Origin: Syntrophales bacterium | GTDB taxonomy: Bacteria; Desulfobacterota; Desulfobaccia; Desulfobaccales; 0-14-0-80-60-11 | Direction of reading: 5' to 3' | Assembly: GCA_028688935.1 (NCBI GenBank) | Contig: JAQTXE010000001.1 | Location: 1-53,207 of the forward strand | DNA length: 53,207 nucleotides | Shown: positions 12,406 to 36,126 of the stretch, in pieces | Layout: each line of letters opens with the position of its first letter | Numbering within the stretch: the first letter of the stretch is position 1 | The notes under the pieces: model-generated | Databases searched by the model: none | What the model was told of the DNA's origin: nothing | What the model saw: only the letters and a program-made list of their open reading frames with translations | Position numbers and translations under genes: made by a program

Positions 12406-12539
12406 AAGCATTTTTTCCATAAGAGAGTTAACCTTCTTTATATTTGTATTATATTTAGATAAGGATTTTAATTATCAGTGGTTGATTGTACTGCATTTAT
12501 TTAGATATTTCTATGCATATCAGCAAGAGAGGAATTAGC

Positions 12540-13829: not shown

Positions 13830-13839
13830 AAGGCCAGCG

Positions 13840-15870: not shown

Positions 15871-15872
15871 CG

Positions 15873-17291
15873 ATGATTCTTTATGAAAAGGAAATTACGG
15901 TTCCGTTAGTCGGACACCATGAAAGGTTATTGGACCACCTATCGGAAGTAATTCTGGAGAGACTGCCCAGATCCGAGATACCCGTTCGAGTCGCGGTTAC
16001 GCTAACCGACGAGAAAGGCTACCATTGTGAGCTGGGCATCCTTTCTGGCGCTGACCATTTTTTCGATGAAATGAGAGGCGCTATTTTTCAGTTCCAGAGG
16101 AGGGGTTTCGAGAATACCGGGCAATTCAATGCAGTATTGATCGTTCCTACGGGGGTCGGGGCCGAAATAGGAGGACATTCAGGGGATGCGGGGTCTGTTG
16201 CCAGGCTTCTGGCTTCTGCTTGTGACAACCTGATCACCCATCCCAATGTGGTCAATGCGTCAGATATCAATGAGCTTCCTGAAAATGGGCTTTATGTTGA
16301 AGGAAGCGTGCTGGCCCGATTTCTAATGGGAACGGTCAGCCTCCAGAAGGTTAGAGCAAATAGAGTCCTTTTGGTCATAGACAAACATGCAGATAAGTTC
16401 TTCTATGAATCTGCCGTGAACTCGGCCTCGGCCGCCAGGTCCTCACTGGGCTTGGATTGTCCGGGGGTGGTAATGCTCGAAGATAAAATGCTGATGCGGT
16501 CGTTATATTCCAGTTCTGGAAGGGCGGTTGGCAAGATCGACTATTTCGAGCGCGTATATGATGTGTTGACGAAGTACCGTCCCCAGTATGACGCCGTTGC
16601 CCTGTCTTCCGTGATCAAAGTACCGGAGAATTTCCACACTGACTATTATCTCAAAGACATGATCAATCCCTGGGGAGGCGTGGAGGCCATGCTGACCCAC
16701 GCCATCTCTTTGATGTTTAATATTCCCTCGGCTCATTCTCCCATGTTGGAGACACGGCAAATACTGGACCTTGAGTTGGGAGTGATCGACCCCAGAAAGG
16801 CTGCGGAGATTGTCTCTGTGACCTTCCTGCATTCCATCCTTAAAGGTTTGCAAAAGAGTCCGAAGATATTGAATGGCATGGCGCCTCTCGGTTGTCCCGG
16901 GGTATTAACGGCAGCCGATGTCTCTTGTGTAATCATCCCGGACGGTTGCATGGGTCTGCCCATTCTTGCAGCCCTGGAACAAGGGATACCGGTCATCGCC
17001 GTGAGAGAAAACAAAAATAGAATGCGGAACAATCTCGAAGAGTTTCCTTTCGACACAGGGCGGCTTTTCTTGGTAGATAATTATCTTGAAGCGGTCGGGG
17101 TGATGAGCGCCCTCAAGGCAGGAGTCTCTGTGGAGTCGGTAAGACGACCGCTAAAATACACAAATGTCTATGAAGAAACGGCCTCCTGCGCCGCGAGAGA
17201 AACCAGCAAGAAGCCATTGAAGTTTGCGAAAGGAATTGATGATGTTGAAGAGGATTTACTCCGAAAGGAAGGAAGTAAGGCGGTCAGGTGA
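15873..17291 (+). CDS. DUF3326-like protein
   Basis: ATG 15873 lies 2 nt after the nspC stop. The motifs LIVPTGVGAEIGGHSGDAG and INPWGGVEA match my recollection of the DUF3326 signature. No known function. Confidence 0.5.
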   Translation: MILYEKEITVPLVGHHERLLDHLSEVILERLPRSEIPVRVAVTLTDEKGYHCELGILSGADHFFDEMRGAIFQFQRRGFENTGQFNAVLIVPTGVGAEIGGHSGDAGSVARLLASACDNLITHPNVVNASDINELPENGLYVEGSVLARFLMGTVSLQKVRANRVLLVIDKHADKFFYESAVNSASAARSSLGLDCPGVVMLEDKMLMRSLYSSSGRAVGKIDYFERVYDVLTKYRPQYDAVALSSVIKVPENFHTDYYLKDMINPWGGVEAMLTHAISLMFNIPSAHSPMLETRQILDLELGVIDPRKAAEIVSVTFLHSILKGLQKSPKILNGMAPLGCPGVLTAADVSCVIIPDGCMGLPILAALEQGIPVIAVRENKNRMRNNLEEFPFDTGRLFLVDNYLEAVGVMSALKAGVSVESVRRPLKYTNVYEETASCAARETSKKPLKFAKGIDDVEEDLLRKEGSKAVR

Positions 17292-18649
17292 CCATAGAGC
17301 GCGTTCTGATTGTTTCCTCGCCCACTTGCGAGAAGGATAAGACTCAAGCCGGCGTCGTATATCTTGCAACAGTATTGAAGGATCTGGGGCTGGAATTTGA
17401 CCTGCTCGATTTGAGTGGCACGATTGATTATTTTGACCCTCCAGAAGAATTTTTTTCACCATGTGATTCTGAGTTCTGGCGGTCCAGTCGTATTTTCAGC
17501 GATTTCACCTGGCTGGATCAACACCTGCCGACGACCTACGCTGAATATGACGCAGTTTTTTATTCGTCTCTTTTTTCCCCGGACATCCTCATCCAAGGTC
17601 GACACGCCCTAAATCAGAAACATCATTTCCCAAACAGCCTGTGCATTGTGGGGGGCAGCGCCCTATCGTGTCTTGATGATCAGCAACTATCTGTTGTCAC
17701 TTCAATATTTGACTTTGTCTGTACTGGATACGATATCCGGGAAATGATTTCTGCAATTCTTCAAGAGAAACCAAGACTTCCCAAAAGCGGGGTTGGAAAA
17801 CATATAAGAACCAATGGCAATGTGTTTGTTCAGCCTGATTACCGACTAGTTGATGTCCGGCGATTTGTTACTTCTTATTCCGGCCATGGCTGTGAATGGG
17901 GAAAGTGCAGATTCTGCAATAGTTCCTTAAACTGCGGAATCTTCTGCAGACCAATTCCTGAACTCATTGATGAGATTGAGCAACTTGCCGGTCTGAACGG
18001 AATGGTCAAAGACGTGATGCTCTCCTCTGACTCCTTCACCGAAGACTACCTGACCTCGCTCGCCTCCTCGCTATCCGACAGAAAGTCCAAGGTGCCATAC
18101 AACGTAATGCTTCGGGGAGAGAGGTGGGTTTCTAACGGACTCGGGGATAAACTGAGAAAATCCGGCTGCTCGGACGTCTTTATTGGTGCCGAGGCGTTGT
18201 GTGATGAAATACTGAGTGTCATGAACAAAGGTTTGAATACGTCCAGCATCCTTAACGCGATCAAGGCCCTATCTTCTCATGTGCAGGTCATTTTGGGACT
18301 AATACTGTTCGTGCCTGGTGTAACAGAAAAGCAACTGAATGAACAACTGCAAAATATCGAAAAAATACTTCCACATGTTAGCGCCATCGAACCAGAAATT
18401 TTAACGGTTATACAGAGAACGGAATTCGCTAAAGAACCAGGGAGATACGGCATACAACTTTGGGCGAAAGAGAAAGCGGTTAATGATAGTTGGTGTTACG
18501 GTTTGAGCCCAGACATACCATGGACGTTCACATCAGATAGAGATGCACGAACTTGGTTCAGATACTATGAAAAGCTCAGGAGACTTACACAAGGTTTCGT
18601 CGAACCTCACTATTGGGATTCCATCGATGAAGTTCAATCACGCTTTTAA
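17288..18649 (+). CDS. B12-binding-domain-like / radical-SAM-like protein with non-canonical CX4CX2C motif
   Basis: GTG start overlaps the upstream stop (GTGA). The N-terminal Rossmann-like RVLIVSSP...VVYLATVLKDLG resembles a class-B rSAM cobalamin domain. The Cys triad GHGCEWGKCRFC has codons at 17891, 17906 and 17915. Downstream are SSDSF and FIGAEALCDEIL. Confidence 0.55.
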   Translation: MTIERVLIVSSPTCEKDKTQAGVVYLATVLKDLGLEFDLLDLSGTIDYFDPPEEFFSPCDSEFWRSSRIFSDFTWLDQHLPTTYAEYDAVFYSSLFSPDILIQGRHALNQKHHFPNSLCIVGGSALSCLDDQQLSVVTSIFDFVCTGYDIREMISAILQEKPRLPKSGVGKHIRTNGNVFVQPDYRLVDVRRFVTSYSGHGCEWGKCRFCNSSLNCGIFCRPIPELIDEIEQLAGLNGMVKDVMLSSDSFTEDYLTSLASSLSDRKSKVPYNVMLRGERWVSNGLGDKLRKSGCSDVFIGAEALCDEILSVMNKGLNTSSILNAIKALSSHVQVILGLILFVPGVTEKQLNEQLQNIEKILPHVSAIEPEILTVIQRTEFAKEPGRYGIQLWAKEKAVNDSWCYGLSPDIPWTFTSDRDARTWFRYYEKLRRLTQGFVEPHYWDSIDEVQSRF

Positions 18650-18844
18650 TTCCCATGGATCAAACACCTTACCACAATACAGTTTGCTCTGAATTAAATT
18701 TGACTTAACAATCTCCTCGTTTTGGTTCCGATGACTGCTCGTGGGTGCCTATTCCGCGCGTCCAAGATAAGGTGAAAAATGGAGTATTTTGTGCTATCGT
18801 GCTCTTCATCAAGGTAAAACCTACGAAAAAATGCGAGTAACCAT

Positions 18845-21800
18845 ATGAAAACCGTTCGTGACGCCTGCCAAATACAGCCAAATGCATTATCCATCAGGCT
18901 CAGCGACCAGATAGAGCGGCTCGATGAGCTGATCGAGGTTGAGGGCGGTGGCTCCGTCTTTTTCGAGAAGACCCACATCACCCAAGGGATGCAGGACCTG
19001 ATCAGTGAGGGCATCGCACGCTTGGGGGGATTTTCGTCACAGGCAGTCTTCCACCTCAAACAGGCTATGGGTGGCGGTAAGACCCACTTGCTAATTGGCT
19101 TTGGGTTACTCGCCCGGCATCCGGAATTGCGCAAGAAATACTGTGGCGGGATGCTTCACGCGTCTGCCTTCCAGAGTGCAAAAATCGCTGCTTTTAATGG
19201 ACGGAACAGCCCACATCATTTCTTCTGGGGCGAAATCGCCAGCCAGCTTGGGAAGGCCGATCTATTCCAGGAGTTTTGGGCTTCCGGGCCGAAGGCACCG
19301 GACGAACAGGCGTGGATCAAACTTTTTGATGGCACTGATCCTGTGCTGATCCTATTGGATGAAATGCCGCCTTACCTTGAGGATTTGGCCACCCGACCAA
19401 TAGGCGCTGGCACTGTTGCAGACATAGCTACTCGGGCCTTTGCAAACCTGCTCACCGCCGCAGGCAAGAAATCAAATGTGTGTATAGTGATTTCTGACCT
19501 ATGGGCCGCATATCAATCGGGTGGAGCCTTAATCAATCGAGCCCTTGACAATGCTCGCCAGGAACTCGGTCGCCAGGAACGCAATATCACTCCGGTAGAC
19601 CTCGCTGCCAATGAAATCTACGACATCTTGCGTAAGCGTCTCTTCAAATCGCTCCCCGACAAGGCGAAGATCGCTGACATCTCCGCAGCCTTCGGCCGAA
19701 AGTTAGAAGAGGCAGCTAAGTCCAAGACCGCCAGTCGCGGCGCTGAGGCAATCGCTGATGAGATTGCCGCCACTTATCCATTTCATCCGCAGCTTAAACA
19801 CGTCATTGCCCTGTTCAAGGAGAACGAGCAGTTTAAGCAGACCCGCGGCCTCATTGAATTGGTTTCCCGTTTACTCAAATCTGTTTGGGAGCGGGCAGCC
19901 AACGATGTCTTCTTGATCGGTCCGCAGCATTTTGATCTTTCAATCCCCGAGGTCCGCGACAAGCTCACTGAAATCTCCGGGATGCGCGATGTCATAGCCA
20001 AAGATCTATGGGACGCACAGCAATCCGCACATGCCCAGGTCATCGACCTGCAGACCGGTAGGGAAGCCGCCACCCAGACTGGTGCCCTGCTCTTCACGGC
20101 CAGCCTCTCGACCGCTGTCAATGCAGTAAAGGGCCTGACGCGTGAAGAGATGGTCGAGTGCCTAGTCTCGCCACTACGCGAGCCTTCTGATTTTCTTGCT
20201 GCCTTCGAAGAGCTGGAGAAAGTGGCTTGGTACCTGCACCATACTCCAGAAGGCCGCTACTACTTCGATCGGCAGGAGAACCTCACAAAGCTCTTGCAGA
20301 GTCTGGCGCATGATGCACCGGAGAATCAGGTTGACGACCTCATTCGACACCGCCTGCGCGAGATGTTCAAACCGGTTCGCAAGACAGGGTATGAAGAGGT
20401 TTTGCCTTTGCCCAAGCTGGAGGATGTGGTTGACCGGGTGCGCAAGGGGCGCGTACTCCTCGTAGTGAGTCCCGATTCAAAAATCCCGCCGGAGGAAGTC
20501 AAGAAGTTCTTTGAAGGCCTCAGCCAGAAAAATAACCTGTGTGTGCTTACTGGCGAAAAAACGGCCATGGGCAGTGTGGAAAAGGCCGCTCGACACCTCT
20601 TTGCCGCGCAGAAGGCAGATGGGCGGATTCCTAAAGGCCATCCACAACGGGACGACCTCGAACGCAAGCAGCAGGGCTATGAACAGGATTTCAATTCCAC
20701 AATTCTTAATCTCTTCGACAAGGTTCTCTTCCCGATCCATCGTGCCGGTCGGGAACCCCAACTTGCTCCCAAAGCACTGGATATGACACGCGATGCCACT
20801 AAACCCTTTAACGGTGAGGAGCAGGTTGAGAAAACCTTAATTTCCAATCCCCTGAAGCTCTACCTTGATGTCGAGAAGGAGTTTGATGCTATCCGTGACA
20901 AGGCAGAGGATCTGTTGTGGCCTGAGAACCAAGAAGAAGCGCGTTGGTCTGATGTAGCAGACCGTTATGCAGAACAAGCCGGCATGGTATGGCTACCTCC
21001 CAAAGGCCTCGAAGCTCTCAAGGCCATCGCTTGCAACCGTGGGCTATGGGAGGACCTTGGCACTGGTTACGTCACGAAGAGTCCGAAGAAGAAGCGCACC
21101 TCTGTCCAAGTCATCACTGAGTCCGGGCCTGACGACGAAGGCAAGGTGCGCCTGCGCGTCAACCCGCAGAATGCCGGTCCTGCACCCAGGATTTATTATG
21201 CTGAAGATGTATCAGTTTCTGAAGAAAGTCCGCAGCTGACGGACCAAATTTACACTACGTCGGCGCTGCGCATGAACTTCATGGTCGTCGATCCTTCGGG
21301 TCAGTATGAGACGGGCGATCCGGTGACTTGGTCCAACAAGCTCGTCCTACGCAACCGGCTTTCGGAGCACGACGGGAAGCGCAGCGTTGAACTCTTCGTC
21401 GCTCCCCGGGGATTGATCCGGTATACGCTCGACGGCAGCGAGCCGCGCGACGGCACTTCCTACGAAGGCCCGATCGCCATTGGCGACGCCGAGGTCCTCC
21501 TGCGTGCCTTTGGCGAGGCGGAAGGGCTTGAGACCAAGGCCGAGTTCCGTTTCCAGGCCAAGGGCAAGAAGGGCGTTGAGATTGACGATGTGAAGCCCGC
21601 ACATCTCGTCTCACGCACCGGCCGCAAGCTCGACTCTCGGGGCAAGACCTTCGAGGGCCTCAAACAAGCCGCTGAGAAGAGCGCCACCTTCGAGGGCATC
21701 GTTCTCAATGTCGGTCAGGGCAACCAGATGATCGCCGTCAATGTGGGAGAAATTGCTGTGGAAGGAACCTTCATTGAGGCGCTACTCGTCAAGGTGCTGG

Positions 21801-21928
21801 AGAAATTCACCCCGGATACTCCGATCACCATGACCTTCCGCAAGGCCCACTTCTCCTCGGGTCATGACCTCAAGGATTTCGCCGGAAAGCTCGGCATCGA
21901 CTTGCAGCAAGGGGATGTCGAGCAGTGA
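18845..21928 (+). CDS. DUF499-family ATPase (anti-phage-associated)
   Basis: 1027 aa. FFEKTHITQGMQDLI...HLKQAMGGGKTHLLIG (Walker A) and VLILLDEMPPYLE (Walker B). Overall layout is typical of DUF499 proteins found with DUF1156 methylases. Confidence 0.7.
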   Translation: MKTVRDACQIQPNALSIRLSDQIERLDELIEVEGGGSVFFEKTHITQGMQDLISEGIARLGGFSSQAVFHLKQAMGGGKTHLLIGFGLLARHPELRKKYCGGMLHASAFQSAKIAAFNGRNSPHHFFWGEIASQLGKADLFQEFWASGPKAPDEQAWIKLFDGTDPVLILLDEMPPYLEDLATRPIGAGTVADIATRAFANLLTAAGKKSNVCIVISDLWAAYQSGGALINRALDNARQELGRQERNITPVDLAANEIYDILRKRLFKSLPDKAKIADISAAFGRKLEEAAKSKTASRGAEAIADEIAATYPFHPQLKHVIALFKENEQFKQTRGLIELVSRLLKSVWERAANDVFLIGPQHFDLSIPEVRDKLTEISGMRDVIAKDLWDAQQSAHAQVIDLQTGREAATQTGALLFTASLSTAVNAVKGLTREEMVECLVSPLREPSDFLAAFEELEKVAWYLHHTPEGRYYFDRQENLTKLLQSLAHDAPENQVDDLIRHRLREMFKPVRKTGYEEVLPLPKLEDVVDRVRKGRVLLVVSPDSKIPPEEVKKFFEGLSQKNNLCVLTGEKTAMGSVEKAARHLFAAQKADGRIPKGHPQRDDLERKQQGYEQDFNSTILNLFDKVLFPIHRAGREPQLAPKALDMTRDATKPFNGEEQVEKTLISNPLKLYLDVEKEFDAIRDKAEDLLWPENQEEARWSDVADRYAEQAGMVWLPPKGLEALKAIACNRGLWEDLGTGYVTKSPKKKRTSVQVITESGPDDEGKVRLRVNPQNAGPAPRIYYAEDVSVSEESPQLTDQIYTTSALRMNFMVVDPSGQYETGDPVTWSNKLVLRNRLSEHDGKRSVELFVAPRGLIRYTLDGSEPRDGTSYEGPIAIGDAEVLLRAFGEAEGLETKAEFRFQAKGKKGVEIDDVKPAHLVSRTGRKLDSRGKTFEGLKQAAEKSATFEGIVLNVGQGNQMIAVNVGEIAVEGTFIEALLVKVLEKFTPDTPITMTFRKAHFSSGHDLKDFAGKLGIDLQQGDVEQ

Positions 21929-22503
21929 GTGAGCAGAAGCCCGCAACCGTGGACTTCGGCGCGCCCGACAAATTCGGGGCGCATCTCTTCCGGGTGGAGA
22001 TTCCGGCCTCACGCCAGGAACCGGTGGTCATCATTGAGGACTACGGTTACCGCGGCCAGGAGGGCGGGATACCCCGGGAGGAAGCCCGCGTCGTCCTGCA
22101 ACGTCCCGTGTGGTCTGCCATAGCCGATATTGCCCGCCGTGAGTTTAACGATCGACTTAAGGCCGCCAAGGTCCTCACCGGGCGCTGGCACACTGGGACG
22201 AACCTGGTGGACCGCCTCCTGGGAAAAGAGCTATGCGTGCTCGCCTGGGCTGCGGAAACGGCCAGCTCGGAGCAACTTCCCATCATTTGTAGCAAGTGGG
22301 CGGCCCTGCGTCCGGAGGAGCGCTGGTGGCTCTTCTCCATGACGGTGGCCGAGGCCGGTCTGCCGGAGGACACCCAGCGCGGCTGGCGCCGGGCTCTGTT
22401 CCTGGCGCTCTCCGACGGTGAAAAGGCCGCCTCCCGGAAACGCCGGCCGCGCCCCGTGGATGAGTATCTGTTCAAATTGCCGCTGTTTGAGGACTCCCAA
22501 TGA
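21925..22503 (+). CDS. Small cassette protein, DUF3780-like
   Basis: 192 aa. GTGA overlap with the DUF499 gene and ATGA overlap with the methyltransferase gene. The position between DUF499 and DUF1156 genes matches the conserved cassette. The sequence-level call is weak. Confidence 0.45.
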   Translation: MSEQKPATVDFGAPDKFGAHLFRVEIPASRQEPVVIIEDYGYRGQEGGIPREEARVVLQRPVWSAIADIARREFNDRLKAAKVLTGRWHTGTNLVDRLLGKELCVLAWAAETASSEQLPIICSKWAALRPEERWWLFSMTVAEAGLPEDTQRGWRRALFLALSDGEKAASRKRRPRPVDEYLFKLPLFEDSQ

Positions 22504-25500
22504 GCGAAACCGTCATCCCGTTTTCACTCAAAGATGCGCCTGCGCTCATCGAACGGCTGCTGCCAGTCCAAAAGCTCTCAGCGGAGGCATATAAAGAACA
22601 GATGGCTGTGCAGAGCAAGACTCTTACTACGCTTGGTAGTTATTGGAAGGGACGTAAGCCGCTAATCCTTGCTAAGGCATGTATTCTTGGCTGCCTACTG
22701 CCAGCCACTACCGACCCAACCCGTGACCTAGAAATCTTCGAAAAGCTCATGGCGATGGACGATGAATCTTTTGCAGTCCGCTGGAAACGTCGCCCAAAGC
22801 CGAAAGAGATTCTCGCAACGCTATCCATCGCTCGCATTGCTGACTACTTTGTTATTGAGCCCGAAGGTATACTGCCGGCGTCGGCACCGGTGGATTCGTC
22901 CGATCCCGATTATGCCAAATTGAAGATTGCATGGCGCGAAGACCTTCTTGAGTTGGAACGCCGCCGTTTGGAAGCACAACTGCTGCCAAAAGTGCCTTAC
23001 CGGGAGCGCGTAGATCAGGCTAAACGAGCAGAAGAGGTCGCACCTAACGTCCATGACCATGTCTGGGATACGGCTAATACTCATTTAGGTACAAATGCGA
23101 ATTCGTTACCGGACTTGGTAGAGCAACTTGGCATCATGCGCTTTGGCCACCGGCCGCGCCTTGCCGACACCTTTTGCGGTTCCGGTCAGATTCCTTTTGA
23201 GGCGGCCAGGCTCGGTTGTGACGTTTATGCCTCCGAACTCAACCCGATAGCCTGCATGCTCACATGGGGTGCATTCAATATCGTCGGCGGATCTGAAGAG
23301 AGCCGAGAGAAGCTCGTAAAGGACCAGCAGGAACTTGTGCACAGTGTCCAAGCAGAGATCGACAAGCTTGGTGTCGAGACTGACGGTAATGGCTGGCGAG
23401 CCAAAGTGTTCCTCTACTGTATTGAGGTCCGTTGCCCCCAAACCGGATGGCGTGTGCCATTGCTGCCGAATTTCGTGATAAGCAAGAGCCGGATGGCGAT
23501 TGCTGAACTGGTGCCTGATCCCGAGACCAAACGATACGACATTGCGATTCGAACCGGGGTCAGCGAAGCAGAAATGAAGGCAGCAGAGCTAGGTACTATC
23601 GGCCGCGAAGGCAAGTATGGTGAAGCGTATCTAATACATCAAGTAAATGGAGTAAATTTTAAAACCAAGATTTCTACCTTGCGCGGTGATTACCAGAAGC
23701 CCGATGGAACAATAGGTAATCGCTTGCGGTTGTGGGAAAAACATGATTTTATGCCACGCCCCGAAGATCTATTGCAAGAGCGTCTTTATTGTATTCAATG
23801 GATGCGTCCCAAAAAGAAAGGTAAGGGGTTTGAGTATGAGTTTCGCTCCATTAATGAAGGCGATCTTCGACGAGATCGTATAGTTCAGGAATATATTGCC
23901 GAGCATTTGGGAGCCTGGCAGGCCAATGGGATTGTGCCGGACATGCGTATTGAAGTGGGTGGGCCACCACGGTACCAGGGCCTTGATTTAATCAGAGCAC
24001 GCGGTTGGACGCATTGGCATCATCTCTTCACCCCTCGTCAACTTTTGTATTTAGGTCTTGCCAAGAGCTATATCAACGAAAAAGCCAGATCAAAAGCTGC
24101 CTTGATAGTTTTCTTCGCTCGCTTGCTTGATTGGTCTTCCAAATTATGCCATTACGGAACAGGAGCTGCAAGAGAATCAATTGCTCATACTTTTTATAAT
24201 CAAGCCCTTAACACATTGTACAATTATGGAGTCCGACCGTTTTCCTTTGCGCAAAGTTATTTGCTAGAGAGACCTGCGCTACACTCATTGGCAACAAACA
24301 CAGAAGTTGCTACTATCCCGGCTGCCAATATTGATGATAGGTTCGATCTCTTCGTTACAGACCCACCTTACGGTGACGCAGTGAAGTACGAGGAGATTTT
24401 AGACTTCTTTATAGCCTGGCTACGCAAACACCCACCTACAGAATTTGCTGACTGGGTTTGGGACAGCCGTCGATCAATGGCCATCCAGGGGGAAGGAGAA
24501 GATTTCCGGCGTGGCATGGTGGCCGCCTACAAACGAATGACTGAGTGTATGCCGGCTAATGGTATCCAGGTCATCATGTTCACCCACCAGTCTGGCGCAA
24601 TCTGGGCCGATATGGCGAACATAGTCTGGGCCTCAGGTCTGCAAGTCACAGCTGCTTGGTATGTGGTCACGGAAACAGACAGCCCGTTACGCGAGGGCAG
24701 TCACGTCAAGGGCACCGTGCTGCTGGTCCTGCGCAAGCGCCAGGGAGCGCACAAAATCAACCGTGATGACTTGGCCTGGGAGATTCAAGAAGAAGTCGAG
24801 AACCAAGTCCAGGCGCTCACCGGGTTGAATCAGGAAGCCAAGGGATTATACCGCGACGAGAATGTTTTCGAGGATGCCGACATCCAGATGGCAGGCTACG
24901 CCGCCGCCTTGCGAGTGCTGACCCGCTATGCCATCATCGATGGCCGGGACATGACTGTCGAGGCACTGCGCCCCCGGGTGAAGGGGGAGACTACTTTCGT
25001 TGACGGACTTATCGCCTTTGCCGTGGACACCGCCAACCAAAGTCTGGTGCCCCAGGGCATCGCCGATGGACACTGGAAGAAGCTCAATGGCGCAGAGCGT
25101 TTTTATCTGAAGATGCTCGAAATGGAAGTCCGCGGTGCCAAGACGCTGGACAACTACCAGAATTTTGCCAAGGCATTTAAGGTGCGAGACTTCCGTGCAT
25201 TCCTTGGTGATCAGCGGGCCAACCATGCCCGGCTCAAGAGCGCCGTCGAATTTGCCCGCGCCGAAATGAGTGAGGGCTCGGAGTTCTATCAGTCCGTGCT
25301 GCGCGCCGTGCTCTATGCCGTGATGGAACTGCAAAATAATGTAGACGGAGAAGTGGTGCTGGCCCACCTGACCCTCAACATTCCCAACTACTATGCCGAC
25401 CTTACCCGGCGTGAGCTGGCCATCGAGTTGGCCGATTACCTGGCCAAGCGACTCGAAACCTTGCGGCCTGATGAAGCCAGCGCGGCGCGGGTGCTCTGCG

Positions 25501-25529
25501 AGTTAGTGAAAAACCAGCGGCTAGGATAA
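22500..25529 (+). CDS. DUF1156-type DNA methyltransferase (N6-A/N4-C class)
   Basis: 1009 aa. N-terminal LIERLLPVQKLSAEAYKE (DUF1156-like), SAM motif I DTFCGSGQIPFEAARLG, and motif IV LFVTDPPYGD (DPPY at 24360-24371). Confidence 0.8.
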   Translation: MSETVIPFSLKDAPALIERLLPVQKLSAEAYKEQMAVQSKTLTTLGSYWKGRKPLILAKACILGCLLPATTDPTRDLEIFEKLMAMDDESFAVRWKRRPKPKEILATLSIARIADYFVIEPEGILPASAPVDSSDPDYAKLKIAWREDLLELERRRLEAQLLPKVPYRERVDQAKRAEEVAPNVHDHVWDTANTHLGTNANSLPDLVEQLGIMRFGHRPRLADTFCGSGQIPFEAARLGCDVYASELNPIACMLTWGAFNIVGGSEESREKLVKDQQELVHSVQAEIDKLGVETDGNGWRAKVFLYCIEVRCPQTGWRVPLLPNFVISKSRMAIAELVPDPETKRYDIAIRTGVSEAEMKAAELGTIGREGKYGEAYLIHQVNGVNFKTKISTLRGDYQKPDGTIGNRLRLWEKHDFMPRPEDLLQERLYCIQWMRPKKKGKGFEYEFRSINEGDLRRDRIVQEYIAEHLGAWQANGIVPDMRIEVGGPPRYQGLDLIRARGWTHWHHLFTPRQLLYLGLAKSYINEKARSKAALIVFFARLLDWSSKLCHYGTGAARESIAHTFYNQALNTLYNYGVRPFSFAQSYLLERPALHSLATNTEVATIPAANIDDRFDLFVTDPPYGDAVKYEEILDFFIAWLRKHPPTEFADWVWDSRRSMAIQGEGEDFRRGMVAAYKRMTECMPANGIQVIMFTHQSGAIWADMANIVWASGLQVTAAWYVVTETDSPLREGSHVKGTVLLVLRKRQGAHKINRDDLAWEIQEEVENQVQALTGLNQEAKGLYRDENVFEDADIQMAGYAAALRVLTRYAIIDGRDMTVEALRPRVKGETTFVDGLIAFAVDTANQSLVPQGIADGHWKKLNGAERFYLKMLEMEVRGAKTLDNYQNFAKAFKVRDFRAFLGDQRANHARLKSAVEFARAEMSEGSEFYQSVLRAVLYAVMELQNNVDGEVVLAHLTLNIPNYYADLTRRELAIELADYLAKRLETLRPDEASAARVLCELVKNQRLG

Positions 25530-25597
25530 GAAAAGCTGGCCCTGAGGAAATGGCTCAAATGGGTCAGCCGTCCGGATAGAACCAGAGGGAAGCCGAT

Positions 25598-28309
25598 ATG
25601 GAAGTGACTAGTATAAAACGTTTCTCTTCCCGCCGCCAGCGTCTGGACCATGCCTTCCTCAGCGCCAAGCTAAAGAATGCGAAATCATACAAGCGCATCG
25701 CCGGCTACTTCCGCAGTTCCATCTTCGAGCTGGTTGGCGAAGAGATCGCCGCCATCCCCACGGTGCAAATCGTTTGCAATAGCGAGCTGGACGCGGCCGA
25801 CGTGGCTATTTCAAAGCATGTCCGGGAGACTGCGCTCAAGGAGCGTTGGAACGAAGCCTCCCCCGAGGTGGAGGCGCTGCTTCATCGGGATCGGTATCGC
25901 AAGCTATACGAACTGCTCAGCAGCGGCCGGGTAGAAATCCGGGTCGTTCCCAAGGATCGCGTCTTCATCCATGGAAAGGCCGGAGTAATTGAAGGCGCCG
26001 ATGGTTCGAAGACTTGCTTTCTCGGCTCAATCAATGAGACGAAAAGCGCTTTCTCAGAAAATTACGAGATCGTCTGGGAGGACCCATCACCTGAAGGTGT
26101 CGCCTGGGTCGAAGAAGAGTTCGAGGCCCTCTGGAAAGATGCCTATCCGCTACCCGAGGCCATTGTCGAAGAAATTAAGCGCATCGCCGACCGCATTCAG
26201 ATTCGCTTCGAAGATACAAAGGTCGATGACCTGCCAGCTGCGGCTCTGGCCGAGAGCCCGATCTATCGCGGCGGCGAACGGCTTCAGCCATGGCAACGAT
26301 CTTTCGTGACGATGTTCCTGAAACACCGGGAAAACTATGGTATGGCGCGTCTGCTGCTTGCTGACGAAGTGGGCCTCGGCAAGACATTGTCTCTTGCAGC
26401 CAGCGCCATCATATCGGTATTGCTTGATGACGGTCCGGTCCTCATTCTTTGCCCGTCGACATTGACGTTTCAGTGGCAGGTGGAACTCACAGACAAGCTC
26501 GGAATCCCGAGCGCAGTCTGGTTGTCTACTAAGAAAGTTTGGATTGATTCCAAAAGCCACATCATCAAAACACGGGGACCGGAAGACATCGCTCGCTGCC
26601 CATTTCGTATCGCCATTGTCTCTACCGGACTGATCTTTCACGAATCGGATGAACGCCAACTCCTGCTTGAACGCAAGTATGGCACTGTCGTCCTCGACGA
26701 GGCGCATAAGGCTCGTCGACGTGGTGGGCTTGGTGAGAAGAAACAGGAGCCTAACAACCTCCTCGACTTCATGCTCCGGATAGGGCCACGCACCAGAAAC
26801 CTGCTACTTGGGACGGCGACGCCCATTCAAACCGAGGTCTACGAACTTTGGGACTTGCTGCGCATCCTGAATGCAGGTGCGGACTTCGTGGTTGGTCGTG
26901 AGCTTTACGCACGCTGGCCTGATTGGGAAAAGGCGCTTCCCGTGGTAAAGGGCGACGAGATCCCACCAGACGAGAAAGACGCCTGGGAGTGGTTGAAGAA
27001 TCCTCTGCCGCCTGGGAGCGAAAACTCCCTATTCGCAACCCTGCGCCTCCAACTGGGACTCCCCGACCTATCCTTTTTCACAGATCGTGGGTTCGGGTCT
27101 TTGGGATTCCTTGAGCAGCAGGCGGTCGGCCAGGCCCTCTCACCAGGTTTTTTGCGCGAACACAACCCTATCGTGCGCCACACCGTGCTGCGCCGTCGGC
27201 AGACTCTGGAAGAAGCTGGTCTCCTTGAAAAGGTCGGCGTAAGTGTTCATCCCGATCCTGATACCCCTCCCACCTCGTATACGGGGGTTGGGTTTAGTGG
27301 CCTCGGCCTGATGACGAATCATCCCTTTGATCTCGCTTATCAGGCAGCCGAGGCGTTCACGGCAGCCTTGAAGAAGCGAACAAAAGCTGCCGGGTTCATG
27401 AGAACTTTGTTGTTACAACGTATTTGCTCGAGTTTTGCTTCTGGACGAGTCACTGCGGAGAAGATGCTGCAAAGAGAAATGCTTGAAGACGAGGAACAGG
27501 CGAAGATAATAGAAGAAGCCCTAAGTGCCCTTACGCCCGACGAGGCTGCACATCTGCACACTATTGTCGCAGAATTGTCCCGGCCGGAGGCACGCGATCC
27601 CAAGCTGGGCGCAGTCCGGTACTTCCTTACTGAGCATCGCACCAAAGGGAAGACCTGGCTTGAGCACGGCTGCATCATCTTTAGCCAGTATTACGACACG
27701 GCATATTTCGTTGGTTCAGAACTCGCAAAGTTGCTGCCGGGTGAACCCGTGGGCGTCTATGCGGGAACTGGTAAGAGTGGTCTATTTCGCGGTGATGACT
27801 TTGCTTCCGTCGAGCGTGAAGACATCAAGGCGGCCGTCAAGAAGCGTGAAATCCGCCTTCTTGTGGCCACGGATGCTGCATGCGAGGGCTTGAATCTGCA
27901 AACTCTTGGTACGCTGATCAATGTCGACCTACCTTGGAATCCTTCGCGACTCGAACAGCGGCTGGGCCGGATTAAGAGGTTCGGTCAAGCACGCCGAACG
28001 GTGGATATGCTCAATCTAGTCTATCACGAGACCCAGGATGAGAAGGTCTACCAGGTCCTATCACGCCGGATGAAGGACCGCTACGATATCTTTGGCGGGC
28101 TGCCAGATACCATTGAGGACGATTGGATCGAGACTGTAGAAAAGCTCGAAGAAATGATGGATGAGTATATCCATCTCCGGGGGCAAGCACGCGACGTCTT
28201 CGAGATGCGATATCAGACCACTATTGATCCCGACAAGGATCGTTGGGAACTATGTTCGAGGGTGCTGGCCCGGAGGGATATTATTGATCGTCTTTCGATA
28301 CCATGGTAG
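25598..28309 (+). CDS. PLD(HKD)-like nuclease domain fused to an SNF2-family helicase
   Basis: 903 aa. N-terminal IAGYFRSS...FIHGKAGVIEG...FLGSINET (HKD-like). SNF2 motifs LLADEVGLGKTL, VVLDEAHKARR, LLLGTATPIQ, LLVATDAACEGLNLQ, NVDLPWNPSRLEQRLGRIKRFGQ. Confidence 0.8.
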   Translation: MEVTSIKRFSSRRQRLDHAFLSAKLKNAKSYKRIAGYFRSSIFELVGEEIAAIPTVQIVCNSELDAADVAISKHVRETALKERWNEASPEVEALLHRDRYRKLYELLSSGRVEIRVVPKDRVFIHGKAGVIEGADGSKTCFLGSINETKSAFSENYEIVWEDPSPEGVAWVEEEFEALWKDAYPLPEAIVEEIKRIADRIQIRFEDTKVDDLPAAALAESPIYRGGERLQPWQRSFVTMFLKHRENYGMARLLLADEVGLGKTLSLAASAIISVLLDDGPVLILCPSTLTFQWQVELTDKLGIPSAVWLSTKKVWIDSKSHIIKTRGPEDIARCPFRIAIVSTGLIFHESDERQLLLERKYGTVVLDEAHKARRRGGLGEKKQEPNNLLDFMLRIGPRTRNLLLGTATPIQTEVYELWDLLRILNAGADFVVGRELYARWPDWEKALPVVKGDEIPPDEKDAWEWLKNPLPPGSENSLFATLRLQLGLPDLSFFTDRGFGSLGFLEQQAVGQALSPGFLREHNPIVRHTVLRRRQTLEEAGLLEKVGVSVHPDPDTPPTSYTGVGFSGLGLMTNHPFDLAYQAAEAFTAALKKRTKAAGFMRTLLLQRICSSFASGRVTAEKMLQREMLEDEEQAKIIEEALSALTPDEAAHLHTIVAELSRPEARDPKLGAVRYFLTEHRTKGKTWLEHGCIIFSQYYDTAYFVGSELAKLLPGEPVGVYAGTGKSGLFRGDDFASVEREDIKAAVKKREIRLLVATDAACEGLNLQTLGTLINVDLPWNPSRLEQRLGRIKRFGQARRTVDMLNLVYHETQDEKVYQVLSRRMKDRYDIFGGLPDTIEDDWIETVEKLEEMMDEYIHLRGQARDVFEMRYQTTIDPDKDRWELCSRVLARRDIIDRLSIPW

Positions 28310-28403
28310 TGCTTCGTTAGATATATGATGTGTTGCCTCACCCCCCGGAACTTCAACTCTTAAAGACATAGCAAAAGTATACCAAATGTAGAATTGCCGA
28401 AAT

Positions 28404-28453
28404 CCCTTCCCCCTATATGATGTGAGTAGGTTCGCATCATACAGGGGGAAGGG
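28404..28453 (+). promoter_or_regulatory. 19-bp imperfect inverted repeat (stem-loop) covering the purine-rich SD region just upstream of the portal GTG start
   Basis: Left arm cccttccccctatatgatg (28404-28422), 12-nt loop, right arm catcatacagggggaaggg (28435-28453). 18 of 19 positions are complementary. GTG at 28456. Confidence 0.5.
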
Positions 28454-28455: not shown

Positions 28456-30564
28456 GTGCAAGCGCTCATCAGCCGGGGAATCACCCGCCTCATCAGGACC
28501 GGCAGCAACCTGATCTACAGGGAAGCTCCGGCCCTGCCCACCTTTCCCGAGACGGACCGTCTCTTTTTTCTTTCCCCCCACCTACTCATGGCCCATTTGC
28601 GGCAGGGCGGCCTGACGCATCCTTACAAGGATCACGTCTGGGTCTATTCCTGCGTCAATGCCATCGCCCAGAACCTCATGGGCATCCCCATGCTCTTTTT
28701 CACCGGCAGCCGCAAGGACAAGAAGCTGGTGGAAGCAGGTCCCCTGGTGCAGCTCTTCGAGACGCCTAACCCGATGATGTCCGGGGCCCAGCTCATCGAG
28801 GCCACCTTCATCTACCTGGGGCTGTGCGGCGAGGCTTTCTATATTGCCGAGCGAAAGAACCCCAGAGAGGTTCCCAAGGAACTCTGGACCTTCCATCCCA
28901 ACCGTTTCAAGGAAGTGGTGGACAAAGATACCGGCCTGATCGCCGGCTGGACTTACGAGAAGGGCGGCAAGAAGATTCCTTTCGAGGCCCACGAGATCAT
29001 CTTCTTCCGCTACTTCAACCCCTACCATGACTACCGGGGGTTGGCGCCCTTGCAGGCGGCCCAGGCGGGGATCGACCAAGACTTCTGGGCCAGCCGTTAT
29101 AACGCCGCGTTCTTTAAGAACAATGCCCAGCCGGGCGGGATCCTGGAGACCTCGGCCAACCTGGGGGACGAGGAATTCAAGCGCCTGTTGGCCCAGTGGA
29201 ACGACCGCCACCAGGGGGCGAGCAAGGCCCACGCCATTGCGCTGCTTGAAGGCGGGGTCACTTACAAGCAGACGGGGCTCTCCCAGAAGGACATGGACTT
29301 CCTGGAGCAGCGCAAGTTCAACCGGGAAGAGATCATGGCTGCGTTCAAGGTGCCCAAGAGCGAACTTGGCATCTACGAGGATCTGAACTTCGCCACCGCC
29401 AAGACCCAGGACCGGGTCTTCTGGACCAAGACGCTCCTTCCCAAGATGGCGCTCTTCGAGTTCGTCGTCTGGCACCAACTCTGCGCTAAACTCTCCGGCC
29501 CGGAGACCTGGGCCGAGTTCGACCGCACCGCGGTGGACGCCCTCAAAGAAGACTTGAAAGAGATGTTGGAGGCAGGCCAGAAGGTCTGGCAGATGGGCGT
29601 CCCTTTTAACGTGGTGAACGAGACCCTGAACCTGGGTTTCCCCAAGGTGGAAGGCGGCGATGTGGGGTATCTGCCGTTCAATATGATGCCGGTGGGCAGC
29701 CAGGGTCTTCCCGATTCCTCTCCTTCCGCAGCCGTTCCCCCCTCGCAACCGGAGAAGGCGGCCGGTTTACCCCCCTTGCCGGCCGCCTCTCTCCATCTTC
29801 CCGGGCCTCAAGTCATCGTTCGCCGGAGCTCGGACCCCAGGGTTTCCTGGGAGCAGTACCACCACCTGTGGGCCGCCTTGATGGAGAAATTCAGGGAGAA
29901 GATGGTGCGATTTTTCTCCTGGCAGGAGGAACTCCAGATCAAGCTGCTGGCAGAGAAACTGGCCAAGGCCCGGCTCCGGGAATACATGGCGGAAGACCTG
30001 CTTTTTGACTTAGAAGAAGCCAACGAAATTTTAAAGAAGCTGGCCTGGCCCCTGTATCTCACCATCGGCACCGAGGCCGGAAAGGCACTGTTTGTGGAAC
30101 TGGGGGCCGCCCCTGCCAACTTCGTCCTGGCGGACACCGCGGCCATTCAGGTCTTGAAGGACAAGCTCATCAAGGTCACCAGGATCAACGACTACACCCG
30201 GGAAAAACTCCGAGAGACGCTGCTGGAAGGACTGGCCAAGACAGAAACGGTGGGCGAGCTGCAGCAGCGAGTGAAAAAACTATTCAAAAGCTCTGAAGCC
30301 CGGAGCCTCAAGATCGCCCGCTCGGAGACCGGCCAGGCCGCGGCCCCGGCCCGGGATGCGGCCATGACGGAACTGGGAATCGAGAAGATCCAGTGGTGGA
30401 CGGCCGGGGACACTGAGGTGCGGGAGACCCATCAGTTCCTGGAAGGCATGGTGGTGCCCCGGGGGATGCCCTTTCCCAACGGTTGCCTTTATCCCTGCGA
30501 CCCCGGTGGGCCGGCGGAGCAGATCATCAACTGCCGCTGTGTGGCCGTGCCCGTCATCGACTAG
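28456..30564 (+). CDS. Phage portal protein (HK97 family) fused to a C-terminal MuF/SPP1-gp7-like head-morphogenesis domain
   Basis: 702 aa. Portal-like VWVYSCVNAIAQNLMGIPMLFF, LCGEAFYIAER, GGILE...QWNDRHQG, FKVPKSELG. C-terminal IQWWTAGDTEVRETHQFLEGMVV...PCDPGGPAEQIINCRCV is the MuF-domain signature. The start (GTG 28456) is uncertain. Confidence 0.8.
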   Translation: MQALISRGITRLIRTGSNLIYREAPALPTFPETDRLFFLSPHLLMAHLRQGGLTHPYKDHVWVYSCVNAIAQNLMGIPMLFFTGSRKDKKLVEAGPLVQLFETPNPMMSGAQLIEATFIYLGLCGEAFYIAERKNPREVPKELWTFHPNRFKEVVDKDTGLIAGWTYEKGGKKIPFEAHEIIFFRYFNPYHDYRGLAPLQAAQAGIDQDFWASRYNAAFFKNNAQPGGILETSANLGDEEFKRLLAQWNDRHQGASKAHAIALLEGGVTYKQTGLSQKDMDFLEQRKFNREEIMAAFKVPKSELGIYEDLNFATAKTQDRVFWTKTLLPKMALFEFVVWHQLCAKLSGPETWAEFDRTAVDALKEDLKEMLEAGQKVWQMGVPFNVVNETLNLGFPKVEGGDVGYLPFNMMPVGSQGLPDSSPSAAVPPSQPEKAAGLPPLPAASLHLPGPQVIVRRSSDPRVSWEQYHHLWAALMEKFREKMVRFFSWQEELQIKLLAEKLAKARLREYMAEDLLFDLEEANEILKKLAWPLYLTIGTEAGKALFVELGAAPANFVLADTAAIQVLKDKLIKVTRINDYTREKLRETLLEGLAKTETVGELQQRVKKLFKSSEARSLKIARSETGQAAAPARDAAMTELGIEKIQWWTAGDTEVRETHQFLEGMVVPRGMPFPNGCLYPCDPGGPAEQIINCRCVAVPVID

Positions 30565-30574
30565 GAGGAAGAAT

Positions 30575-31699
30575 ATGGCTGAAGCCGCCATTAATCGGGA
30601 AAAGAATCCAACTTTCCATAAGGCTCTCGACATCCAGGTCCGCCAAGTGGGGGACCCCGCCGAGCGGGTCCTGGAGTTCATCGCTTCCACCGCCCAGGTG
30701 GACCGCTACGGCGACATCATCGAGGTGGAAGGCTGGGAGCTGGACAACTGGCTGAAGGTGCCGGTGATCCTCTACGGCCATGATTACGGCGGGTTTCCCA
30801 TCGGCCAGGGAGTGAGCGCCATCAAAGACCCACTCCGGGGCCTGGTGATTCAGGCCAAATTCGCCACCGCCCAGGAAAACCCGGAGGCCGACATTGCCTA
30901 CCGTCTGGCCTTGGGCGGCTATATCCGGGCGGTCTCGGTGGGGTTCATGGACCTGGAGAGGGAGCCCATCTTGGATAATGAGGGGAACCGTACAGGCTGG
31001 CGCTTCAAGCGGGCGGAGTTGCTGGAGGTGTCGCTGGTGGCCGTGCCCGCTAACCCCGGGGCGCTCATCGTGCCGGTGCAAAAGGGCCTCCTGACCCAGG
31101 AAGAAGCCGAGGCCTTCCAGGCCAAGATGCAGGAGGCAGCTGAGGAAAGCCAAGAGCAACAAGGCGACGATGCTCCCGAAAATAAGAAGCATGACGACCT
31201 GAACCAGCGCCTCATTGCTCTGGGCCTGCCGCCTACAGAGGGGAACGGGGACTGCTCCGGGACACTCTTAGCCCTGTGCGACCTGGCGGAGGACCAGCGC
31301 CGGGAAATCGAGGAACTTCGGTCCAAGGCCACCCTCAAGGTCGACCTATCGCTGTCGGAGGAACAACTGACGGAGATCAGGGAGCAATGGGAGGCTTTGC
31401 TCCGGGGGTTTAAAGCTGACATCCCGCTTCTGATGGTCAAGGCCGGGGCGGTTTTGAGCGCCAAGAACAAGGCGGCACTGGCAGAAGCCCGGGACCGTAT
31501 CCAGGCGGTGCTGGATGCCGCCGAAGGTTCGGGCCAGGAAGAGGGCAAAACCAAAATCACCGATTACTACTCCCTGGCCATGGACCCGGAGAGCGAAGTT
31601 CCCGGAAACTCGACCGGGGATGACCCGGATCTGAACAAAATCTTCGAGCTGACCCAAGAAGTGGCCAAAATCTTCAAGCTGCCCGCCGCTGCGGGCTAA
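30575..31699 (+). CDS. HK97-family prohead protease with C-terminal coiled-coil (scaffold-like) region
   Basis: ATG 30575 after AGGAGGAAG. LEFIASTAQVDRYGDII, VPVILYGHD, VSVGF, ELLEVSLVAVPANPGA. The C-terminal half is charged and helical. Confidence 0.8.
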   Translation: MAEAAINREKNPTFHKALDIQVRQVGDPAERVLEFIASTAQVDRYGDIIEVEGWELDNWLKVPVILYGHDYGGFPIGQGVSAIKDPLRGLVIQAKFATAQENPEADIAYRLALGGYIRAVSVGFMDLEREPILDNEGNRTGWRFKRAELLEVSLVAVPANPGALIVPVQKGLLTQEEAEAFQAKMQEAAEESQEQQGDDAPENKKHDDLNQRLIALGLPPTEGNGDCSGTLLALCDLAEDQRREIEELRSKATLKVDLSLSEEQLTEIREQWEALLRGFKADIPLLMVKAGAVLSAKNKAALAEARDRIQAVLDAAEGSGQEEGKTKITDYYSLAMDPESEVPGNSTGDDPDLNKIFELTQEVAKIFKLPAAAG

Positions 31700-31711
31700 A
31701 GGAGGACGGAC

Positions 31712-32944: not shown

Positions 32945-32950
32945 TTGCCG

Positions 32951-32976
32951 GGGAGCCGGTAATTCCGGCTCCCTTT
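32951..32976 (+). terminator. Intrinsic terminator/attenuator after the major capsid gene
   Basis: Perfect 9-bp stem gggagccgg (32951-32959) / ccggctccc (32965-32973), 5-nt loop taatt, then TTT. Confidence 0.5.
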
Positions 32977-32995
32977 CACATATGAGGAGTCGACC

Positions 32996-33244
32996 ATGCA
33001 ATACCGGGTTAGAGACGCATACGTGGTGCACCTGGGGAAGGGGAACGTCTTGAAGGCAGGCGAAGTGTTCGAACCCACCCCCAAGGTCCTTCAGGAGCAG
33101 GGCTGGAAGATTGAGCCGGTCAATGGGGAGCCGCAACCGGGCAAAAACGATAAGCCTGATCCCGCCGCCAAGCCCGAAACCAAGGAGGTGCCGGAGCCCC
33201 CGAAGGACCGGGCCATGAAGAAGGACGAAGCCCAGACCAAGTAG
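32996..33244 (+). CDS. Small hypothetical head-module protein with Pro/Lys/Glu-rich tail
   Basis: 82 aa with a GAGGAG RBS, in an intergenic slot between capsid and connector genes. No recognisable motif. Confidence 0.5.
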   Translation: MQYRVRDAYVVHLGKGNVLKAGEVFEPTPKVLQEQGWKIEPVNGEPQPGKNDKPDPAAKPETKEVPEPPKDRAMKKDEAQTK

Positions 33245-33251
33245 ACACCTT

Positions 33252-34938: not shown

Positions 34939-34950
34939 GGAGATGACAAA

Positions 34951-36108: not shown

Positions 36109-36126
36109 TTCTTGAGGAGGTCTTAT

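Follow-up and report, generated by a model that had tools for sequence, protein, structure and literature searches.

The window analysed here, a 53,207-nt stretch of DNA from a Syntrophales bacterium, carries four long open reading frames (ORFs) within 18845-28309, all on the + strand by direct reading of the window; they are named here after MANTIS, the published system to which we assign them below. The first, mtsA (18845-21928, +), starts with ATG and encodes a 1027-aa DUF499 AAA+ (ORC/Cdc6-like) ATPase with a C-terminal Fn3-like and RRM region. It is followed by mtsB (21925-22503, +), which starts with GTG and encodes a stand-alone DUF3780 protein of 192 aa, and by mtsC (22500-25529, +; ATG start), whose 1009-aa product is a predicted DUF1156 N6-adenine DNA methyltransferase (MTase). 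The last gene, mtsD (25598-28309, +; ATG start), encodes a 903-aa protein that combines an N-terminal single-HKD (PLD) nuclease domain with an SNF2-type SF2 motor. The junctions can be read from the sequence and are those that the original prediction for this DNA had given: mtsA and mtsB share a GTGA overlap at 21925-21928, mtsB and mtsC an ATGA overlap at 22500-22503, and mtsC is separated from mtsD by a spacer of 68 nt (25530-25597, +), in which a Shine-Dalgarno-like GAGGGAAG run precedes the mtsD ATG.

Family membership, catalytic motifs and target recognition

The original prediction had assigned the four proteins to the DUF499, DUF3780, DUF1156 and PLD/SNF2 families, and a homology check against Pfam and the NCBIfam equivalogs places all of them above cut-off. 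MtsA scores 1496.8 bits against NF042962 (cut-off 1200), MtsB 241.6 against NF042961 (200), MtsC 1295.5 against NF042963 (1000) and MtsD 1235.8 against NF042964 (1100). With hidden Markov model E-values of 0 over the full length, these matches lie far beyond chance. All four NCBIfam families are labelled 'anti-phage-associated', in keeping with the proposed BREX/DISARM-like logic and with the labels that the original prediction had expected (NF042961-NF042964). The PADLOC models DUF499 (PDLC02192), DUF3780, DUF1156_MTase and PLD_Helicase, which that library names by domain only, likewise match over the full length with 1625, 272, 1455 and 1497 bits. The gene order AAA+ ATPase, DUF3780, N6-MTase and HKD-helicase recurs in more than 60 related loci.

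This combination has a published description. Type-2 BREX-related (BR) systems are defined by a stand-alone DUF3780 gene, by Fn3-like modules in the DUF499 ATPase ahead of its C-terminal RRM, and by an N-terminal HKD nuclease on the helicase in place of TUDOR (NAR paper). A preprint of 24 September 2026 equates Type-2 BR with the former Gao_RL/Gao_29, renames it MANTIS and calls the proteins MtsA (AAA+), MtsB, MtsC (N6-adenine methyltransferase) and MtsD (PLD + SF2) (bioRxiv 10.64898/2026.09.23.753747). The same preprint prints 'DUF3870' for MtsB. We read this as a misprint of DUF3780, since the preprint credits the NAR paper with the idea of a reader module and since the operon of E. coli is also annotated as DUF3780.

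The catalytic motifs are invariant, or vary solely at an x position, in 45-58 homologues. In MtsA, Pfam recognises DUF499 and CHB_HEX_C_1/Fn3_assoc at aa 845-894; the Walker A motif GGGKT (K79) is invariant in all 58 homologues compared, and the Walker B motif LILLDE ends on E173. MtsB matches DUF3780 with an E-value of 2.7e-72 and has 65 invariant columns in an alignment of 28 sequences. Its AlphaFold2 model, built from 29 sequences that are all at least 83% identical, is of low confidence (predicted local distance difference test score, pLDDT, 41.5), and within that limit its order of secondary structure, four strands followed by five helices, matches the published description. MtsC carries DUF1156 at aa 21-82, a UPF0020 MTase match, motif I (FCGSG) at 225 and a DPPY motif at 621-624, which is invariant in 55 of 55 homologues and has the same numbering as D621-Y624 of P. 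aeruginosa MtsC. In MtsD, PLDc_2 (aa 23-179), SNF2-rel_dom and Helicase_C are accompanied by one HGK (H125) followed by GSIN, by GLGKT (K262), by DEAH at 367 and by motif VI (QRLGRIKR) at 787. A sequence search of the PDB returned no matches for MtsA, MtsB or MtsC, and for MtsD only generic SNF2 motors (ISWI/RapA/INO80).

In P. aeruginosa, mutation of K80/E174, D621/Y624 or H122/K260 ended methylation or restriction (bioRxiv 10.64898/2026.09.23.753747). Compared by residue position, every residue mutated in that work has an intact counterpart in the window at a near-identical position. The Walker A lysine K80 of MtsA corresponds to K79 (GGGKT) and the Walker B glutamate E174 to E173 (LILLDE); D621/Y624 in motif IV of MtsC corresponds to D621-P-P-Y624; in MtsD, H122 of the PLD domain corresponds to H125 in the one HGK...GSIN motif, and the Walker A lysine K260 to K262 (GLGKT). 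The single HKD of the window MtsD is consistent with the MtsD dimer reported in the preprint.

The four proteins differ in how evenly they are conserved. MtsA, MtsB and MtsD have a mean identity of about 78-81% to 45-84 homologues from genome contigs over their whole length, whereas MtsC contains a hypervariable central target-recognition domain (TRD; about aa 440-610, 23817-24329, +). The median identity of MtsC to 55 homologues is 42% across aa 440-610, compared to 69% for aa 1-439 and 81% for aa 611-1009. Across aa ~440-600 identity ranges from 21 to 50%, with 21% in the lowest 40-aa bin, and at the DNA level the similarity to one related cassette (L057) vanishes over 23398-24357. In the published system the specificity switch maps to aa 444-527 of MtsC, and swapping residues 445-527, which lie in the TRD, switches the specificity of methylation and restriction together (bioRxiv 10.64898/2026.09.23.753747). 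A variable MtsC centre alongside conserved MtsA, MtsB and MtsD fits such MTase-directed specificity. The best TRD match among the homologues compared has 67% identity (L065); consequently, the recognition sequence is not inferable from homologues.

Prophage carriage and proposed working of the operon

Downstream of the cassette lie genes for a portal (28456-30564), a prohead protease/scaffold, a major capsid protein, a head-tail adaptor, a major tail protein, a tape-measure protein and an endolysin. Upstream of the accessory island in which the cassette sits are genes for ParB, a DnaN clamp, a Gp3-like protein and a PD-(D/E)xK/DUF2800 exonuclease. This backbone is shared with IMG/VR contigs whose portals are 44-61% identical, with synteny to L001, L005, L007 and L009. 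A contig of an NCBI metagenome-assembled genome (MAG), JAQUNJ010000003.1, has the same order of mtsA'-mtsB-mtsC-mtsD-portal-protease-capsid and runs through portal, protease and capsid at 100% identity to the window. Past the right end of the window, this contig carries LmuB, an S24 CI-like repressor and a tyrosine integrase before it reaches MobA and MerR genes labelled 'Syntrophales bacterium'. The structural genes, the synteny and the MAG contig with its repressor and integrase thus bear out the earlier claim that a phage carries the cassette: it is prophage-borne, and its carrier is a temperate tailed phage.

Gene content, gene order, motif integrity, TRD variability and phage context are direct observations. 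From them we read 18845-28309, with a probability of about 0.82, as an intact MANTIS operon (mtsA-mtsB-mtsC-mtsD; Gao_RL; a Type-2 DUF499-centred BREX-related system) that is probably cargo of a temperate siphovirus-like prophage in a Syntrophales bacterium.

How such an operon could work follows from the P. aeruginosa system, in which MANTIS hemimethylates the asymmetric 6-bp site CAACAC (bioRxiv 10.64898/2026.09.23.753747). There, methylation requires MtsC, MtsB and both ATP binding and hydrolysis by MtsA, with MtsB acting as a dimer that activates methylation. Restriction requires all four proteins and both ATPases and is strongest when unmodified sites are inverted, the orientation dependence being graded and not absolute. 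MtsD is the effector by genetic requirement and resembles in structure the dimeric PLD-helicase SauUSI. The same preprint also mentions previous assays in which Gao_RL was tested for restriction of some DNA phages (bioRxiv 10.64898/2026.09.23.753747). A mechanism, the self/non-self rule and a role for DUF3780, points that the original prediction took to be uncharacterised, have since been published in this work.

Transferred to the window, this scheme would have the AAA+ ATPase MtsA load MtsC on a short asymmetric site chosen by the central TRD of MtsC. The MtsB dimer would stimulate methyl transfer to one adenine on one strand, leaving the site hemimethylated, and ATP hydrolysis by MtsA would permit turnover. 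On unmodified sites, MtsABC would license the dimeric PLD-SF2 enzyme MtsD, which may then translocate and cut incoming DNA, with a preference for inverted unmodified pairs, as in the preprint's unmeasured working model. In a lysogen, the chromosome and the resident prophage would both be methylated, the operon would exclude superinfecting phages and plasmids, and induced progeny virions would exit carrying the methyl mark. The expectation that the phage's own DNA must be protected therefore stands insofar as the prophage would be methylated along with the lysogen chromosome; for the same reason this self-protection is ordinary and no paradox.

But could the operon chiefly serve the phage itself? 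Progeny might be pre-methylated for MANTIS-positive hosts of the same specificity, or MtsD might attack the unmethylated chromosome or rival phages in a naive cell. Phages that had escaped MANTIS in the reference system subsequently showed an efficiency of plating of ~1, which the authors credit to probable methylation, and a targeting but non-methylating MtsC was toxic except in combination with a mutated MtsD nuclease (bioRxiv 10.64898/2026.09.23.753747). The cassette also directly precedes the late structural genes and is co-oriented with them. However, an integrase and an S24 repressor mark the element as temperate, three stacked defence systems are the usual pattern of lysogen-protecting morons, and an attack on the chromosome of a new host would defeat lysogeny. 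We therefore hold a primarily phage-serving operon to be distinctly unlikely. If true, turning MtsD against an unmethylated chromosome or rival phages would amount to a methylation-based system being used offensively.

Island borders, relatives and neighbouring modules

In three of the related viral contigs (L001, L005, L007), the PD-(D/E)xK exonuclease gene directly adjoins the portal gene, and in two others (L006, L008) the two are separated by ~4.9 kb of other cargo, including an SbcC-like ATPase gene. The adjacency in relatives identifies the 5.1-28.4 kb region of the window as an accessory island at a variable junction: it spans 5094-28455 (~23 kb, no strand assigned), between the recombination exonuclease and portal genes, with a mosaic GC content of 38-59%. 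No terminase gene was recognised in the window (1-53207) and no tRNA genes were found; since the portal lies directly 3' of the recombination module in relatives too, the packaging genes must lie elsewhere. Direct repeats resembling att sites around the cassette or the island were limited to short chance-level matches, and three pieces of the window gave no megablast match to GenBank phages.

The window matches landfill-metagenome runs, and its host is an uncultured Syntrophales MAG from such a metagenome, so that it is not the convenient natural test case that had been anticipated. A Logan unitig spans 7793-28483 unbroken and in a single variant, at a depth of 6.8 in run X1 and 8.9-9.8 in run X2, and these two runs showed no second variant of the island at 90% identity or above. 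In the same runs the backbone on either side of the island (3000-4578 and 28460-39000) is fragmented, up to several-fold deeper and represented by many unitigs bearing single-nucleotide variants (SNVs). An SNV-rich, deeper backbone around a single-variant island indicates that several related phage strains co-occur in the landfill samples, and at the level of detectable similarity these strains do not have the island. At the island edges, a unitig covering 4549-7683 joins the 3' 560 nt of the exonuclease gene to the island helicase, and the 20.7-kb unitig extends 28 nt into the portal ORF; this reach into exonuclease and portal argues against a chimera.

Several points weigh against the reading as a prophage-borne MANTIS operon. 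The Logan unitigs break at 4549 and 28483, so that the links between island and backbone rest on the window assembly, the MAG contig, 560 nt of exonuclease and ~28 nt of portal. The identity of MtsA-D to the E. coli operon is only 36-49%. The biochemical steps, the recognition sequence and the expression in a lysogen are for this operon what we infer by analogy, and the nuclease activity of MtsD was not directly measured even in P. aeruginosa (bioRxiv 10.64898/2026.09.23.753747). Regulation may also differ: the optional Arc/CopG repressor gene mtsR is absent from the operon, a tblastn search of the window with E. coli MtsR as query returned no homologue, and a scan for consensus sigma-70 promoters found none 5' of mtsA. 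MtsR is present in only some MANTIS operons (bioRxiv 10.64898/2026.09.23.753747), so its absence does not bar membership.

The breaks of the assembly-graph unitigs at both island edges, together with the GC mosaic of the island, would also suit a cassette that is not phage-borne at all but part of a nested integrative element or of a defence island of the bacterium, with the phage adjacency due to a chimera or to a position outside the prophage borders. The closest cassettes, with MtsB 91-93% identical, indeed sit on islands with integrases, toxin-antitoxin genes and transposases and not on phages. Yet the phage genes on both sides of the island are syntenic with the IMG/VR relatives, which makes the island internal to the element. 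Two further assemblies, represented by the Logan unitig and the MAG contig from NCBI, match the window over mtsD and the intergenic stretch. The unitigs break where the shared backbone carries strain-level SNVs and not at repeats, and no recombinase was found among the island genes scanned. A bacterial setting is thus quite improbable, and we retain prophage carriage.

What is mobile, in turn, appears to be the cassette as such. The stretch over which other cassettes resemble the window in DNA sequence opens at 18817-18845 and closes at 28307-28314; as these limits coincide with the edges of the gene block, the transferred unit is just the four genes. The closest cassettes come from metagenomic contigs and Desulfobaccales MAGs, with 90-93% identity in MtsB and ~89% in MtsA and MtsD, and those whose flanks were examined lie on the integrase, toxin-antitoxin and transposase islands mentioned above. 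MtsB homologues of 74-90% identity occur across Thermodesulfobacteriota, Proteobacteria, Verrucomicrobiota, Planctomycetota, Cyanobacteria and Chloroflexota, and a truncated archaeal copy from a methanogen MAG has 81% identity.

The mtsA-mtsB junction is tight in 83 of 85 related loci, and an insert between mtsB and mtsC is found in 16 of 80 relatives. Between mtsC and mtsD, the gap exceeds 600 nt (an extra 0.7-2.3 kb) in 35 of 60 related cassettes, the window representing the compact form. Most close relatives (L056, L065, L067, L070 and ~30 other genome loci) have 1.5-1.9 kb inserted at this position, and in L056 the insert codes for a 495-aa protein with DUF4062 and HATPase_c_4 domains. In these relatives, the mtsC-mtsD junction is thus a site of cargo insertion.

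Among mobile elements, an MtsB homologue is encoded on 21 PLSDB plasmids and in 14 IMG/VR contigs. Nine of these contigs hold the four-gene cassette and two more a cassette cut by the contig end, which makes about 11 carriers in 2.9 million IMG/VR contigs. The flanks of the nine contain integrases, recombinases, lysozyme, holin and CI-type repressors, with no capsid genes within 10 kb. A full MtsA is encoded in none of 50,697 GenBank phage records. Orphan MtsB-like (DUF3780) ORFs of ~150-160 aa were seen in three IMG/VR contigs (L150, 9992-10447; L156, 9998-10477; L157, 5212-5643), near which mtsA, mtsC and mtsD were undetected.

The only GenBank phage match is a contiguous piece of 1,126 bp in Proteus phage vB_PvuS_Pm34 (KY420199.1, L158; 5343-6468), with 92% DNA identity to the mtsA-3'/mtsB-5' region of E. 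coli UMNK88 and without mtsC or mtsD. In the annotation it contains two intact ORFs, of which gp5 (5389-5916) corresponds to the C-terminal Fn3 and RRM region of MtsA at 93% aa identity and gp4 (5962-6477) to the DUF3780 domain of MtsB at 98%. Most simply, the piece is a captured or left-over fragment. A role of gp5 and gp4 as a dominant-negative anti-MANTIS decoy was also considered and downgraded, the match being a single contiguous mtsA-3'/mtsB-5' piece.

Broken relatives of this kind raise the question of whether the window cassette is itself decaying, non-functional cargo. Besides the Pm34 phage, which retains only its 1.1-kb fragment, mtsA and mtsD are split in L056, and L097 and L137 are fragmented. 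The four window ORFs, however, are full-length and colinear with their homologues, and their catalytic motifs are all intact and equal to the consensus of 45-58 homologues, making decay very improbable.

The region 5' of mtsA (18650-18844, +; 195 nt) is presumed to hold the promoter or leader and contains no + strand ORF above 14 codons. Promoter and terminator scans of 17-29 kb gave counts not above those of shuffled sequence. Between the mtsD stop and the portal start, outside the conserved cassette, lies a hairpin (28404-28453, +) with 22-nt arms of 91% complementarity. Its RNA fold of -40.8 kcal/mol (z = -6.1) was not equalled in stability by any of 200 shuffles. It lacks a U-tract and ends 2 nt 5' of the portal GTG, its 3' arm sequestering the G-rich run just ahead of that codon. 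Placed between the cassette and the late genes, the hairpin could act as an insulator, as a processing site or in the control of translation.

The island and the prophage end hold further modules. A Septu pair, PtuA/PtuB (12486-14685; PADLOC, 193 and 148 bits), lies 4 kb 5' of the cassette in a segment of 38% GC, compared to ~60% for the phage. At the prophage end, beside the S24 repressor and the integrase, a Lamassu/ABC-3C-type system of LmuA (CTD7), MC3 and LmuB with 42% GC occupies 50960-52637 and runs on to 13642 in L063, so that LmuB falls beyond the window.

The left part of the island (5094-12405) has a minus-strand gene for an SF2 helicase of 1084 aa. It also encodes an EEP-family nuclease, whose gene is translationally coupled to that of a 624-aa protein, followed by a protein of 276 aa; neither of the last two proteins has a match in Pfam, NCBIfam or PADLOC. 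This segment may be a further defence module. Directly 5' of mtsA, 14704-18649 holds a three-gene operon with overlapping junctions, encoding a pyridoxal phosphate (PLP) enzyme, a DUF3326 protein and a B12-binding radical S-adenosylmethionine (SAM) enzyme. The PLP enzyme resembles carboxynorspermidine decarboxylase (nspC; TIGR01047, 338 bits, under the cut-off of 409), and none of the three proteins has a PHROG match. The operon could belong to a polyamine, DNA-modification or other accessory pathway.

Bolder readings would be that the exonuclease-portal junction in this family of temperate siphoviruses is a previously undescribed hot-spot for defence cargo, that the helicase/EEP or the nspC-like/DUF3326/radical-SAM module is a new defence or DNA-modification system, or that MtsD is used offensively in a newly infected cell. 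We regard these as unlikely.

Comparison with known systems

Finally, we would like to place the operon among the systems that it resembles. That it is Hma (Type-1 BR: HmaA helicase-nuclease, HmaB methylase, HmaC ATPase), the call that the original prediction had expected from PADLOC, has hardly any chance of being right: the families are homologous, Halomonas HmaB and HmaC being annotated as DUF1156 and DUF499, and the Hma models do match the window proteins (PADLOC; HmaC 172.5, HmaB 75-76 and HmaA 121 bits), but the scores that the dedicated models give to these three proteins are 9-19 times higher (1455-1625 versus 75-172 bits), pointing to Type-2 BR/MANTIS instead, and HmaA carries a C-terminal NOV_C/PD-(D/E)xK nickase and an N-terminal TUDOR (NAR paper) where the window helicase has an N-terminal HKD and no NOV_C match. 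The identity with Hma is refuted by this domain architecture.

The two remain relatives: the HmaABC system of Halomonas meridiana (PMC11232893) has a homologous DUF499 ATPase, DUF1156 methylase and SNF2 motor, and it was first flagged by its co-occurrence with Septu, which the window has too. Type-1 BR is defined without a DUF3780 gene, however, and whereas HmaA alone protected against T4 (PMC11232893), MANTIS needs all four proteins.

BREX, especially type 3 with BrxC, PglXI and BrxHII, has a homologous AAA+ ATPase, N6-MTase and helicase, and shares with MANTIS the hemimethylated 6-bp asymmetric sites and the MTase-directed specificity. MANTIS differs from BREX by its explicit nuclease effector and by its dependence on how the sites are oriented. 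As an identity for the window cassette, BREX (types 1-6) was ruled out: PglZ, BrxA, BrxB and BrxL were undetected in the cassette and in ten neighbours scanned with PADLOC, and the likeness to PglX (45 bits) and BrxH (84-98 bits) is weak. DISARM likewise combines a methylase and a PLD nuclease with an SNF2 helicase, for which the window gives DrmD-like matches of 145-178 bits, but in the window the PLD domain is fused to the helicase. It too was ruled out, as the matches to the two DrmD equivalogs, at 177.6 and 135.1 bits, stay far under the respective cut-offs of 610 and 950 and neither DrmA nor DrmB (DUF1998) was found. Type III and Type ISP restriction-modification resemble MANTIS in that their asymmetric sites are hemimethylated, communicate by an ATP-driven process and are preferred in inverted orientation; in MANTIS, by contrast, the orientation dependence is graded and methylation needs an AAA+ loader and MtsB. 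SauUSI, to which the preprint likens MtsD in structure, targets modified DNA.

Closest of all are the Type-2 BR systems themselves, from whose published description the window architecture shows no difference. The operon of E. coli UMNK88 (NC_017641.1), one of 17 MANTIS-type operons in 5426 complete E. coli genomes, is colinear with the window at 36, 48, 44 and 49% identity for MtsA, MtsB, MtsC and MtsD and carries the same RefSeq family names. It differs in an MtsB of 366 aa with an extra C-terminal domain, compared to 192 aa in the window, and in its surroundings: a CopG gene lies 5' and a restriction endonuclease gene 3' of it, on an IS-rich (insertion sequence) chromosomal island beside McrBC. 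The MANTIS of P. aeruginosa AZPAE15024 (bioRxiv 10.64898/2026.09.23.753747) agrees with the window in its four proteins, their order, the catalytic positions and a variable MtsC TRD. It resides on the Pseudomonas chromosome, whereas the window operon sits on a prophage of a Thermodesulfobacteriota host and has no MtsR.

Phage carriage is not discussed in the NAR paper on Type-2 BR or in the preprint (bioRxiv 10.64898/2026.09.23.753747). With the self/non-self rule and a role for DUF3780 just published, the locus opens no new mechanistic question; its residual novelty lies in the unexplored neighbours on the island and in the rarity of phage-borne MANTIS. What it adds, from an anaerobic lineage that is uncultured, is a MANTIS operon that is both intact and divergent and has a TRD unlike any compared, and an example of methylation-based MANTIS travelling as phage cargo that illustrates how temperate phages shuttle multi-system defence islands. 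The locus is a divergent further example of the published system, in which prophage carriage is mildly unusual and the multi-system island is typical of temperate-phage morons.

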